64,000 bases of DNA from the NCBI GenBank assembly GCA_965153355.1, contig OZ231126.1:16926001-16990000 (forward strand), read 5' to 3'. This document shows positions 20,766 to 64,000 of this stretch, piece by piece. The notes beneath the pieces are model-generated. The model was not told the origin of the DNA. It ran no database searches and saw only the letters and a program-made list of their open reading frames with translations. Every line of letters starts with the position of its first letter. Position 1 is the first letter of the stretch. Position numbers and translations under genes: made by a program. This DNA is from Flaccisagitta enflata (lineage: Eukaryota).

Positions 20766-21264
20766 TTTTCTCTATAAATCACACATGAGCAAGTGACAGG
20801 TTTGACTAGGAGTATGGAAATAAAAAGATTAAAAGAAAATATGATCGCCTGCATGAGCAATTGACAATTTTTCTCTCTCATTTGGGTGATTTTATCGAAT
20901 TTCGATATAAATTTTAGAAAAACAGCTTAACTTTTTTCCAAGGAAGTACCTACTAGCTAGTGGTCGTATAGACAGGAAGGGGCGTGGAAAAGGGGAAGGT
21001 GTTTTGGATGGAGATGTGGAGGATGCAGTCGGATTTTGGAAGGATTGAGGGGGGCGGGGGATAGTAGTTACATATATAGGGTTTAACTATGTTTTTTTTG
21101 GATGGGTTTCTGATCCTTGTAACAAGCTAGATTAGATAAAGGAAAGGCGCTAGTGATACATTATTTTTACATATATTTGTAACAAGCTATACTGCGCTTT
21201 GACACTAAGTTCATCTGTTTCTGTTTGGGTAGAGCTAGAAGAAAATTGTTTTAGTCTGACTTGA

Positions 21265-21537
21265 TCAGGAGTTGCATCTCCTATCATTGTTGTTTTTCTT
21301 GTTGTGATGATTGTAGTTGTTGTTGCAATTCTTCCATTCGATGAAGTCACACTCAGACCACTGATGGCAAAACCTTGCTTTTATTTCTTCTTTTATTTCT
21401 AATAAGGTGTAGTCCAAAAAATTGATGCGTTGACACACTTCCAAATTGGTTGAATGCAATTCTTTAGGAGCATCCTTATCCAAAAGTCGTAATATATAGG
21501 CTCCTTGACACAAAGCCATGGTTTCAATCACAGTCAC
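21265..21537 (-). CDS. Hypothetical protein (90 aa), left accessory cassette
   Basis: Non-repetitive ORF overlapping the end of the upstream ORF in a co-oriented cluster. Confidence 0.45.
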   Translation of the reverse strand: MTVIETMALCQGAYILRLLDKDAPKELHSTNLEVCQRINFLDYTLLEIKEEIKARFCHQWSECDFIEWKNCNNNYNHHNKKNNNDRRCNS

Positions 21538-21865
21538 ATGGGTTTTTCCTTTGTTTTCTTTCCTCTAATTTCTGTCGATTAAGAAGTTCCTTGTGATAAA
21601 GCTGACATAACTCCAGGGTCAGATTGGCGACACTCTCTATAACCGCATTGACTTCTTTTCTCACTTTGCCCAAATGCCGGTCACTACGATCACATTGAGC
21701 AGCCGTTTCCAAATCTCTTGTCGCTTCCTTATTGTATCGATTCGCTTCTGATTTTATTTGGTTTAAATGACCAAATATATCATGCGCATTTTCCAAAATG
21801 TAATTTGGGATGTGAATTTGTTCTCGCTTTAGTCGAGCAAATAGCCTCTCAGAATGATGAGCCAT
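21524..21865 (-). CDS. Hypothetical helical/coiled-coil protein (113 aa)
   Basis: ATG-initiated ORF with normal composition in a tightly packed cluster. Confidence 0.55.
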   Translation of the reverse strand: MAHHSERLFARLKREQIHIPNYILENAHDIFGHLNQIKSEANRYNKEATRDLETAAQCDRSDRHLGKVRKEVNAVIESVANLTLELCQLYHKELLNRQKLEERKQRKNPCDCD

Positions 21866-21962
21866 TTTTACAAATTCTCTCCTTCAAAAAGATCGAATCC
21901 TAACATACATATATATTTTTTTTATTGAAGTGATTAAAGTGCGTTACGAGATTGAGTATAGT

Positions 21963-59693: not shown

Positions 59694-61728
59694 ATGGAAG
59701 AAATCACCACAAGAAAAAACTCTCTTAAAGACCCAGTAAAACATTTGATTAAAAAATATTATACAAGTGATGACATACACCTCAACCCCAACACTTCTAA
59801 TATATTAAGCGAAATAAAAAAAGATAGGAATCTTGAAGGTTTAACCGCTGAAGACATAATCTCCTTCAAAAACAGCTTATATCACATTTCGGTAAGCGAG
59901 AAAAAGTAAAGTTATCAGTTTCGGACTTTTGCACAGAATACTGATTGTATCTACCTTTCCCCCTTCTTTTCTCCCCAGAGATCGCAAGAATATAAGATTT
60001 TAAAAGGAAAAAATCGGTATACAACGAGACAATATGTCAGTTTCGGTCCAGGTGAAATGAAAAAATGAGCTTAAAAAATGATTTTTTGATTTTTTTTGAA
60101 TTTTTTTCTGATTTTCTTTCCTATTTTTAGTCGCGGACACGCGACTCTACACCTTAAAAAATGATTTTTTGATTTTTTTGAATTTTTTGAGCTTAAAAAA
60201 TGATTTTTTTGATTTTTTTGAATTTTTTTTCTGGATTGCCGTGTATCCGGCCTTGTTTTCTCTCTTCCCCCAAGGTCAAATTTTAGCAATGGATTTGTCG
60301 TACATCCGGAAAGTGCGTCGTCAGAAACGCACAGCGATTAGCGCTCAAACGAAACCGACCATAATATTGGTTCTTTTGGATATATTTAGTCGCTTCTGCC
60401 AGTTGAGGATCTTACCTGACCAACGAGCGATAACAGTTCAGCAGGCTATAAGAGAAGCTCTTTCTTTTTTCCTGCCAGTAACAAGGAAATCCAACAATTA
60501 TTCACACTTTCTGACAGACCGAGGTATGTTTTCCCCCCTCCCCCCACTTCCCTCCATATATCTATCTATCTGTCTCGCTCACCTATCTATCTCTCTCCTG
60601 TCTCTCTCTCTCTCTCTCTCTCTCTCTCTCTCTCTCTCTCTCTCTCTCTCTCTCTCTCTCTCTCTCTTCTCTCTTTTCTCTCTTTCTCTCTCTCTTTTCA
60701 TCCTCTTTTGTTTTTTATGGTCAGGTAGCGAATTCAAAAGTGACCTGTGCAAGAACACCGGAATTCCAAATCTATTTCATGTCAGAACGTCAAATATCAA
60801 CAAAATTTCATTAGTTGAAAGACATATAAGGCTAGTAACAAACCCGTCCGTCCGTCTGTCACCGCACTTTGTTAATGGGAAAGGTTTCGGCCTTACTGCT
60901 CCAGCCTAAACGCTCCACTGGTCTTTACGGTTCCCTACCCCTCACCCGCACGCGACTGAGGTAGCCGTGTATCCAGCCTTGTTTTTTTTTCACTTCAGGA
61001 AATGCAAAAAAGTTTTTTTTCGAATTTTGATACGACATCCAAGTTTGCAATACGACAAAGTTGTCCATCTAACAGAGGTCGTCCTTAATTCTACCCCCAG
61101 CCGAGCCATCGCTTATTACACACCTCATAGAGTTCAATTTGACAACTATATCTCATCCAAAGTGCTTAGACAACAATTGCAGTTATACAGAAAAAATCAG
61201 GAAGAAGCTAAAAATGTCTTTGAAAGATTAGACAATGATAAAACTTTTAAAATATATGATAAGGTCCGCTTAAAACTAACAAAGCAAATTATTAGAAAAG
61301 AAAGCGGGCTTTTTAATCCCTTAGTGTCTAAAGAAGTCTTTGAGATTTCAGCTGTCAATTCTGATAGATATCCATGGTCTTACCGTTTGAAAGAACTACC
61401 TGGACATAGACTCTTTTATGCTTGGAATCTAGTAAAAGTCGATGAAAGAATACTAAAAGAAGCGGACAAACAAAAGCATTTGGTCTTACAGAATGATGAA
61501 ACTACATCAATTGATGTAATAGACATTAAAAAAAGGGAATCAAACATGTTACGAAATAAAAAAATATTACCCTCTAAGTCTGAAATCATGTTTGAAATCT
61601 TACACAAAGGAGAAAGACAGTTCGTAACAAAAGAGACATTACTTTTATTCAAAAAAATGTTTGATGATGATGTGCTTAAATATTCGATGAAATTTGATTT
61701 ACCTGAATTTCAACAATACCGTGTGTAA
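59694..61728 (+). CDS. int: Retroviral-like (rve) integrase of Maverick type, 5 exons, 451 aa
   Basis: Exons 59694-59891, 59979-60051, 60275-60523, 60725-60830, 60999-61728. Catalytic D (ILAMDL), LDIFSRF, D (FLTDR|GSEF), E (LVERHI|RK), NSTPSRAIAYYTP; C-terminal SH3-like FKIYDKVRL...EVFEI..YRLKE..FY..NLVKV. Confidence 0.92.
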
Positions 61729-61922
61729 CAAAAAGACTTTGTAAGACTTTTTAAAAAAAATATCACAATAGCAAGCTATTCCCAAAAATTTTTTACTATA
61801 ATTCATTTAACTTAACTAACCAGAGTCGACGGGGAGACGAAACTTACAGACGGACGAATATTGCGTTTTTTTATTGTGTGTTTTTTTTTTTCAGTCTTAC
61901 AGGGTGTTTTTCTTCATTCAAA

Positions 61923-63754
61923 ATGGATATAACTACAAAATCTAACTACAATAGCTCAAGTAGCGACAGATATACTTTACATATAAGCAACATAAGTACA
62001 GAACAGCAACTAATGGACAGTCATCAAAGTAGTGCCAACTCATTCACTGCTTTAATCCAGCCTCCTTTAGATCTAAATAACCTAATGTATCTGAGAGCAC
62101 ACGACACTGACTTGAAACTGGAAAACCTCAACATAGACTCTGTACCTTTAATTTTCCAAAAAAACAACTCCGAAATAATCAAAACTAAACTTGTAATCGA
62201 CTCTAGTCTCTGCAGAGATAATTTTATAGTGGATAAAGATGAGTTACACGAGGAAAACCAAAAACAATTGGAAGTTGCTTTAGATGATTTTCATACACTG
62301 CAGCCATCTAAGGCTTTAAACTTTCTCAATGAAATTCTTGAAAACTCATCTAACTTGTTTATCATAAAACGCTATTTAGAGGTCGTTGCAGACGACAACA
62401 GCATATTTCAAAACCAAATTTTTGAAGGATTGTCTGCTGACAAGTCAATAGATGAGGATATCACAACTCATGATCTAAATATGATTTTCCGGTATACGGA
62501 AATAGCTCTTTTTGCGAGAATCGAAATTTCAAAACATCTTAATATGCTCACCCACCCACCCGTCCCTCCAAGCAAAAGCCCCACAAGGAAATTAACAGAT
62601 CTTTTAGACCTTCGAATTCCATACCGCTTTGATAACGGTCTCGACCGCACCCGCGAAGAGCGTATTCTTTTCGCATCGAAGGTTTTGAATTCTCCACAAA
62701 AACGTACTCATTACAATGACACGCTTGGAATAAGAACGAGCCCTAGTATCAAACTTATCGATCTTACAAATTATTATGATATAAACTTCAAAAGGTTAAC
62801 TGATAAACAAAAAGAAAAAAAGTCTGATGAGATAAAATCAGCACTACACGCGTGGCTCTCCGTAGCTGGCAAACTAGGAAAACAAGCAAACGGTCAGTTA
62901 ACCGCAGATAACAGACAATATTTGGAAACCTGGCAAAACAGCAATTTGACTATCATAAAAATGGGTAGAAAACTCCTGGAACTTACTTTTAACGCTAAAG
63001 AAAGACAAATGAGACCCAACTCTAAAATATTCAATCGACCTTTTTTGGCATTGAGTCTTGACCGAAGTCATCTTAAATGTCAATTTCATATCAATAGAGA
63101 TAAACTTGTTGATAAATGTAGCCTTACCGTAAAATTCCCTCCATATGCGTCTTATAAATTGGGAAGTTCATTGCAAGAAAATCAAGAAAATGAAAACAAA
63201 ATAAACAAAGTCGTAGTAGGGCCAATAACGCTCACAAAACAATCAAACATTGCAATGTATACTAACATAATAGTTTCAGACCGTCAAAAACTTTTTTCCT
63301 CAATTCGTTTTTCTCCTCAACTACTTTGCGTCAAATCTCCCATATTGGCAGAGACAGCGCGTGAAAGTGAAAGATCAATTCTCTTTAGTTCTGATAGTGA
63401 TTTTATAACATTCTTTCAAATGCCCTTAAAACTTAATAAATACGGGACAAATATCATTTCTACCACCGCGTCACATGGTAAAATCCATCAAGATTTTTTC
63501 AAAGTACATCGTAACCATAACATATTGTCGCAAATCAAAATACGGATCACCGATGAAAATAATATTGATTTTAGGTAAGCTCTCTCAACAAGACCACCCC
63601 ACGGACGGACAGACTTTCAAAATGAATTTTTTTAAAAAACTTCACAAAAAAATGTTTTTTTTTTGCCCCTGTCATTCTCTATAGATTTCCAAGAAATACG
63701 ATGGTTAATTTAGCGTTATGCTTTCGGCCAACTCCTTTATCGATTGATGAATAA
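61923..63754 (+). CDS. Minor capsid (penton)-like protein, 2 exons, 573 aa
   Basis: Exons 61923-63574 and 63685-63754; N-terminal YTLHISN...ANSFTALIQPPLDL..LKLENLNI and C-terminal ILSQIKIRITDENNIDF|RFPRNTMVNLALCFRP match the Polinton/virophage penton jelly-roll pattern. Confidence 0.75.
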
Positions 63755-64000
63755 ACTGTATAAGGATGTAAGCACGGACGTACAGAACTTCACACGGTTT
63801 CGACGCCAGACAATGCGTTGACTGACTCTCTCTCTCTCTCTCTCTCTCTCTCTCTCTCTCTCTCTCTCTCTCTCTCTCTCTCTCTCTTCATTTATCATAT
63901 CTGTCGGTCGGTCTGTTGATTTGTTAATTTGATTTGATTGACCTTGTTTACATGTATATAGAATAAAAATTGTTTTTTTATCTGTATTTAGAATGAATAC

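Follow-up and report, generated by a model that had tools for sequence, protein, structure and literature searches.

Can the core genes of an integrated, virus-like DNA element be split by many introns of the host's kind and still be intact? This question is raised by a 64,000-nucleotide stretch of the Flaccisagitta enflata genome (contig OZ231126.1 of assembly GCA_965153355.1, positions 16,926,001 to 16,990,000 of the forward strand; hereafter the window), in which a preliminary description placed a giant, intron-rich endogenous Maverick/Polinton-like virus at positions 20950–64000. The locus is a Maverick-type element, or is derived from one, and its core genes are apparently intact and heavily split by introns. 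We propose, with a probability of roughly 0.7, that an endogenous Maverick/Polinton-type element with intron-rich core genes in the style of host genes occupies the window from about 30 kb (possibly about 24 kb) to its right end. Two gene blocks would point apart, with the polymerase gene in the minus-strand block and a probable packaging ATPase gene, other genes and an integrase gene in the plus-strand block.

A core gene set for Mavericks/Polintons of animals and protists is listed in a section of PMC5718144. In the passages cited here, described intact Mavericks are 15–25 kb long with intronless core genes (PMC8097293; bioRxiv 10.1101/2022.07.12.499685), and the open reading frames (ORFs) of intact vertebrate Mavericks likewise lack introns (PMC8097293). 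That compact, intronless format is not found here: the genes modelled in the window for polymerase, integrase, ATPase and an orphan three-exon protein have 12, 4, 1 and 2 introns, respectively. The likeness lies in the gene set and its layout, with neighbouring genes for a protein-primed family-B DNA polymerase (pPolB) and an rve integrase, a probable A32-like ATPase gene, two opposed modules and a position in a nuclear genome. The preliminary description is borne out both in its assignment of a Maverick/Polinton-type gene set and in its claim that the core genes, although open, contain many introns of the spliceosomal type.

A polymerase gene in thirteen exons

The pPolB gene occupies positions 30537..37415 on the minus strand and was recognised by homology, by a splice model and by motifs. 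For the homology, exon 9 (window 32979-33479 (−), 167 residues) served as the query of an exhaustive HMMER search, which returned 234 proteins at E≤1e-3, 53 of them at E≤1e-10; only three matches reach 68% identity or more, and these are just 108–179 residues long. Four clusters of relatives (P0007, P0008, P0009 and P0010/P0176) lie on metagenome contigs of 3.6–13.7 kb, and most of their members have 1037–1136 residues. In tblastn comparisons, relatives of 1118–1131 residues are collinear with successive polymerase exons from the first residue to the last, and their residue numbering is continuous over gaps in the window (117/117, 649/651 and 936/937). A shorter relative of 663 residues (P0011) aligns with exons 9–13 up to a common C-terminus, with 220 of 661 positions identical. 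The Pfam family DNA_pol_B_2 (PF03175) was reported in three of nine scanned relatives (two above the cut-off) and in 11 of the 30 members of a more distant set, A4 (best E 1e-29); Endonuclease_7 was matched in 9 of 30 distant polymerase matches. A profile of the close relatives (A1) aligns with the wider pPolB set A4 in hhalign at a probability of 100% (E 4e-58, 869 columns). Together these matches identify the gene product as the protein-primed family-B polymerase of the Maverick/Polinton core set. No match came from a word-based homologue search with the Exo I exon, no relatives from IMG/VR scans with A1, P0111 and P0092, and nothing relevant from a comparison of profile A1 with PDB sequences; one JGI metagenome locus was recovered (L001).

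Exons were modelled by taking the coordinates of aligned stretches as anchors and listing the in-frame GT..AG pairs between them, and the acceptors at 35874 (exon 4) and 31353 (exon 12) were picked among alternatives by alignment to relatives. All on the minus strand, the exons are 37415-37316, 37151-36804, 36706-36191, 35874-35694 and 35332-34702 (exons 1–5), 34441-34219, 34112-33905, 33779-33626, 33479-32977 and 32661-32108 (exons 6–10), and 31927-31729, 31353-31266 and 31178-30540 (exons 11–13), followed by a stop codon at 30539-30537. The 12 predicted introns measure 87–393 bases and all 12 are bounded by GT and AG; the exons make up about 4.3 kb without a stop or frameshift, a coding sequence of 1442 codons (1448 with a longer exon 12). 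The gene had been described as having 13 introns; its GT-AG junctions and open frame stand, but it is the exons that number 13.

The spliced model contains the polymerase motifs Exo I, Exo III, A, B, C and KxY, in keeping with the earlier remark that catalytic motifs are retained. Several of them meet introns: motif A is interrupted by intron 9, intron 10 begins where motif B ends, and motif C (FSDTDS) is split by intron 12. A 'TDSD' stretch within exon 13 was considered as motif C and rejected in favour of this split motif.

How readily would such junctions arise by accident? Each stretch between anchors was shuffled 300 times, and in-frame GT..AG pairs within 8 codons of the anchors were counted. 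Some in-frame solution was present in 5–39% of shuffles per gap, and one that at least equalled the score of the actual junctions in 0–8.7%. The product over the shuffle rates puts the chance that all 12 polymerase gaps are solvable at about 3e-9, and in-frame splicing of this gene is far above chance.

Integrase and a probable packaging ATPase

At the other end of the region, a gene for an rve-type (DDE) integrase lies at 59694..61728 on the plus strand, recognised by an rve match, a catalytic triad and in-phase junctions. Its five exons (59694-59891, 59979-60051, 60275-60523, 60725-60845 and 60999-61725) are joined across four predicted GT-AG introns, all in phase, into a model of 456 codons, which upholds the four introns first ascribed to it. 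Exon 3 alone matches Pfam rve (PF00665) with E 3.5e-4 and 21.2 bits, the sole family reported, and has no relevant match among PDB sequences. The D, D, E triad is present and is spread over exons 3 and 4: exon 3 closes with the second catalytic Asp, the residues that usually adjoin it resume beyond intron 3, and exon 4 supplies the Glu. These features mark the protein as the retrovirus-like rve/DDE integrase of Mavericks/Polintons. A reading by eye of a chromodomain in the C-terminal part was dropped, there being no Pfam match.

Between the two lies a two-exon gene at 51279..53090 on the plus strand (exons 51279-51406 and 51575-53087) that probably encodes an A32-type (A32/FtsK) packaging ATPase. 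The assignment draws on an ESM Atlas lead, PF04665 Pox_A32 being attached to 24 of the 30 nearest named clusters (score 0.95, a lead only), and on motifs seen by eye, namely a deviant GKS-type P-loop (Walker A) and a hydrophobic-DD Walker B. The coding part has a single intron of 168 bases, filled by (GTT)n, where at least two had been claimed. Between the P-loop and Walker B parts runs a K/E/R-rich, apparently disordered insert of about 250 codons (51750-52400 (+)); in relatives P0197 and P0235, at 73–74% identity, the insert is likewise open and the C-terminus is the same. Pfam scans of the relatives gave nothing relevant, and an AlphaFold2 model of the protein, with a mean confidence score (pLDDT) of 33.0, was unusable.

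Exon edges conserved among relatives

The ATPase stop is followed after 23 bases by a gene of 614 codons in three exons (53114..55437 (+)). Exon 1 is an ATG plus one base, exon 2 (53376-55031) has 1656 bases and exon 3 lies at 55253-55434; the introns are 258 bases and then 221 bases long, the second holding a full copy of the host repeat described below. The middle exon of this gene is a 610-codon ORF, and the earlier remark that orphan genes splice in frame holds here. No match was found in Pfam, PDB, PHROGs or the ESM Atlas, and Pfam scans of its relatives gave nothing relevant; an AlphaFold2 model of its 551-residue exon (mean pLDDT 30.3) was unusable.

The relatives of this gene are nevertheless informative about its exons. 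They form four lineages at 99%, 77% and, for two of them, about 69–73% identity to the window. Within lineages the median identities are 98.1–100%, and each of the 9 members of the window's own lineage is 98.8–98.9% identical to it. The conserved stretch is bounded precisely by the acceptor and the donor, and in three lineages a stretch resembling the host repeat follows the same donor; in P0193, P0195 and P0196 it appears as a read-through tail past that donor. Such tight lineages would fit a single locus in each species as well as young families of elements.

The polymerase relatives offer a second view. Clusters P0007, P0008 and P0176 (1086–1131 residues) end 3–14 residues past motif B, the place of intron 10 in the window, and their last residues, G-E-F, G-K-Y and G-K-V, may be a splice donor read through in translation; cluster P0009 reads about 70 residues further and ends at the start of the window's next intron. 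Taken as a whole, ORF ends of relatives are not significantly associated with the window's junctions: 28 of 81 C-termini and 24 of 83 N-termini lie near one, and random sets did equally well in 360 and 656 of 5000 trials, respectively. Nine C-termini cluster just past the motif-B junction, and this cluster by itself is suggestive of a shared intron.

These patterns bear on whether the genes belong to the host rather than to a mobile element. In a vertically inherited, host-maintained cluster derived from a Maverick, whether domesticated or long resident in single copy, selection and not transposition or infection would have kept the genes in several related species, and they would have been moulded into the form of host genes. 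The four discrete lineages with medians of 98.1–100% do resemble one locus sampled in the populations of four species, and the exon edges conserved over lineages, the repeat-like stretch past the same donor in three of them, the host repeats within introns and the terminal repeats not seen within the window all agree with such a history. However, four young element families would give four tight clusters equally well, and a full set of polymerase, integrase and ATPase with catalytic motifs is what would be expected of an active element; we consider the host-maintained cluster unlikely. As an endogenous Maverick/Polinton-type element, the locus would presumably still be able to replicate (by protein priming), to integrate (through the DDE enzyme) or to form particles.

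A host repeat within the introns

The introns carry material that is also found around the genes. A host repeat of 125–160 bases resembling a miniature inverted-repeat transposable element (MITE) is present in full or in part at 12–13 places, including the left flank. Full copies lie at 55084-55208, 60122-60259, 32808-32962 and 20608-20765, and fragments at 35387-35408, 35933-35962, 58296-58317, 60964-60985, 48569-48596, 12831-12853, 6937-6959 and near 1334. Three introns of the polymerase gene, two of the integrase gene and one of the three-exon gene contain it (5 of the 16 introns of polymerase and integrase), and it makes up the bulk of integrase introns 2 and 4 and of the second intron in the three-exon gene. 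Copies are also found outside genes, and other introns are without it. The ends of the repeat are conserved, its GTCC-rich middle varies, and its T-rich 3′ end is often just upstream of a splice acceptor. Since the same MITE and microsatellites are found in introns and flanks, the introns are made of the surrounding host DNA material; the core genes would thus have GT-AG introns of host style, carrying the microsatellites and MITE of their surroundings. The MITE may act as an introner, a type of intron-generating transposon that is expected in many near-identical copies, every copy forming an entire intron whose splice sites come from the element or from its target duplication.

Repeats within gaps are also what insertions into dead genes would leave, with splicing that is fortuitous, and a decaying provirus of this sort has several observations to its credit. 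Tandem repeats occupy 617 bases of the polymerase gene, all of them in introns (9 of the 12), and MITE pieces lie in several gaps. Three donors are poor: those of polymerase intron 3 (GTCACA) and intron 5 (GTCATA), and that of integrase intron 4 (GTCCGT), which lies within the MITE fragment that makes up almost the whole of this 153-base intron. If these donors are unused, the genes concerned are broken, and with intron 4 unspliced the integrase would end shortly past its catalytic core. In degraded vertebrate Mavericks, moreover, large insertions have been taken for introns by gene finders, according to a passage in PMC8097293. Against decay stand the exons themselves, in which there is no stop or frameshift over about 4.3 kb, not one base of tandem repeat, and a GT-AG solution in frame at 12 of 12 gaps with the small chance probability given above; relatives of the three-exon gene at 69–77% identity also keep the same exon ends. 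A decaying provirus is very improbable. In a Maverick/Polinton-type element as proposed here, the introns are presumably removed in vivo.

Extent of the element and its neighbours

The part of the element that can be traced with confidence starts at about 30.3 kb and stops at 63.6 kb; from the end of the polymerase gene to the end of the window is at least 33 kb. The left limit of 20950 and a size above 43 kb are not confirmed, the leftmost genes being animal-type. The first of these is a single-exon gene of the gustavus/SPSB type (22439..23278 (−); Pfam SPRY, E 8e-13), whose ORF (22442-23278 (−)) matches PDB entry 2fnj (fly CG2944/gustavus) at E 1.1e-66 and human SPSB1 at E 5e-61, with SPSB4 also matched; being animal-type, it is probably either a neighbour of the element or a gene that the element captured. 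Next to it is a single-exon IAP-like gene with BIR and RING domains (23318..23905 (−); Pfam BIR E 7e-12 and RING E 1.6e-9, PDB BIRC1 E 4e-26), which may belong to the host or be cargo. These adjacent genes are each in one exon, against the intron-rich virus-like genes nearby.

The word 'giant' is not supported either. The four modelled genes amount to about 9.2 kb of coding sequence, tandem repeats make up 17.8% of 20950-64000 (and 14.3% of 1-20949), and the leftmost 3 kb or so holds the animal-type genes, so that the length reflects introns, repeats and possibly host DNA, not more genes. As for 'virus', searches of Pfam, PDB, PHROGs and the Atlas with window proteins up to position 64000 brought up no recognisable capsid protein, penton or protease. 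The Pfam part of this hunt covered 10 ORFs (nine with nothing relevant, one with the weak rve match), 10 exon pieces and 20 further ORFs, among which there was no adenain-like cysteine protease; 10 window proteins gave nothing below E 0.07 in PHROGs. Capsid proteins are rarely detected by sequence tools, and a protease gene may lie beyond 64000.

That no such gene was recognised is one of several points that weigh against a Maverick/Polinton-type element. First, the terminal inverted repeats of Mavericks, which go with a 6-bp target-site duplication, were not found within the window, nor were the capsid genes and the protease: no long inverted repeat joins the left part to another, and the right end lies beyond the window. 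Second, single ORFs or exons do not reach the expected families with ease. PF03175 is matched by none of six single minus-strand ORFs and reached by no single polymerase exon; the rve match of the integrase stays below the Pfam cut-off (21.2 against 32.6 bits); and for the ATPase, whose Walker A motif deviates from the consensus, neither Pfam nor PDB nor PHROGs yields a statistical match. Third, the two gene blocks are tied only by their proximity and by a similar divergence from relatives.

A rival reading is a composite region, with one or two smaller Maverick-like elements standing amid host genes and satellite in place of one element of more than 43 kb. The two animal-type, single-exon genes at 22.4–23.9 kb fit this, as do a tandem satellite at 25.4–27.4 kb, microsatellite over most of 41–50 kb, and ORFs between 24 and 30 kb in which no Pfam family was found. 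Nematode Mavericks, on the other hand, are described as having host-derived cargo near one end (in a passage of bioRxiv 10.1101/2022.07.12.499685), so that animal-type genes could stand inside an element, and the divergence from the nearest other lineages is similar in both blocks (68% identity for polymerase exon 9, 73–74% for the ATPase and 69–77% for the three-exon gene). A composite region is a possibility, if in our judgement a doubtful one, and we infer that all the genes are parts of one Maverick/Polinton-type element.

Known systems and meaning

The closest parallels to the intron-rich element also differ from it. First, in nematode Mavericks the core genes are intronless and cargo genes have introns (Widen et al., bioRxiv 10.1101/2022.07.12.499685, in the portion cited). 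There too a virus-like element stands beside host-type genes at one end, but the pattern is reversed here, with core genes that are intron-rich and IAP-like and SPSB-type genes in single exons. Second, dinoflagellate proviruses resembling Maverick-Polintons are populated by introners, most copies of which apparently arrived after integration (Gozashti and Corbett-Detig 2025, PMC11957031, as stated in part of that paper). Again an integrated Maverick-like element holds copies of a short transposon of the host, of a kind known to create or fill introns, but the present host is an animal and most introns here are not MITE (5 of 16 contain it). Among animals, introners are known in copepods, according to a passage of PMC9860276. 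In searches of open-access text, supplements excepted, no animal Maverick whose core genes are rich in introns turned up; the supplements may list elements that carry introns.

Because the core genes have introns, their proteins would be made only after transcription and splicing in the nucleus. A distinct lineage of spliceosome-dependent viruses, as first suggested, is possible. In its fullest form, this would be a lineage of Mavericks in marine animals that depends obligately on the spliceosome, with an intron after motif B that relatives 30–40% identical possibly share, a MITE acting as an introner that adds or fills introns, and a locus that is possibly a conserved unit in several related species; we advance this scheme as a whole only tentatively. 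Were it true, virus-like core genes that have taken on host architecture and are still intact would be known from an animal for the first time. More generally, if the introns are spliced, virus-like transposons can acquire the gene architecture of the host and keep their enzymes, and the locus would provide an animal test case for a connection, so far reported only in dinoflagellates, of transposons that spread introns with DNA viruses that have integrated.

There is also a practical consequence. Genes in surveys of Mavericks, Polinton-like viruses and endogenous viruses are commonly predicted with ORF finders of the prokaryote type, these elements being said to lack introns; a survey of protists chose such a gene finder since endogenous viruses 'do not contain introns' (in a passage of PMC10120064). 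An element whose polymerase gene has 13 exons would be invisible or fragmentary to surveys with such ORF finders, as the preliminary description foresaw, and the protein collection indeed has the polymerase exon only as pieces of 108–179 residues.

Other genes and sequence features

Further genes of the plus-strand block lie on either side of the integrase. The gene labelled 'penton' in the preliminary description (56163..57469 (+)) has at least two exons, separated by an intron of 230 bases (56442-56671) with a GTAAGT donor and in phase 0. The single GT-AG intron attributed to it is thus in place, but the penton identity is not supported by any family match in Pfam, PHROGs or PDB. It is followed by an ORF of 200 codons (57580..58182 (+)) with a strong acceptor-like site abutting its ATG, a low-complexity, E/K/Q-rich ORF of about 400 codons (58424..59629 (+)) and, 3′ of the integrase, an ORF of about 550 codons (61923..63578 (+)) with no match in Pfam, PHROGs or PDB. 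On the minus strand, an ORF of 76 codons (30273..30503 (−)) lies just 3′ of the polymerase stop, and three partly low-complexity ORFs (37700-38794, 39603-40718 and 43689-45581, all (−)) are found upstream of the polymerase gene, with long microsatellites between them.

A pyrimidine tract plus AG occurs no more than 25 bases before 6–7 of the 14 putative start codons that were looked at (57568-57582, 59660-59696, 61880-61925, 40718-40740 (−), 30503-30540 (−) and 23278-23310 (−)). Together with the 23-base spacing between the ATPase and three-exon genes, these acceptor-like sites suggest introns in 5′ untranslated regions, a shared leader, or spliced-leader trans-splicing of polycistronic transcripts.

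Scans of the window found no tRNA genes or Rfam families. More than half of the words sampled from 53300-63299 are present in seven DNA runs (from three studies, two of them marine metagenomes); the shares in three metatranscriptome runs, 0.13, 0.08 and 0.06, are not evidence of expression. The G+C content varies between 32 and 48% across the window, and microsatellites are abundant. Within the satellite region, 1.8 kb of tandem arrays at 25459-27227 have periods of 11, 15, 18, 27, 51 and 72 bases and contain long low-complexity ORFs on the minus strand; this block represents satellite DNA or else encodes a repetitive protein. The left flank holds three pairs of long inverted repeats, 5951-6267 with 11247-11563 (88% complementary), 10027-10299 with 10517-10789 (100%) and 18000-18294 with 18337-18631 (78%), which probably represent further transposons of the host or foldback elements.

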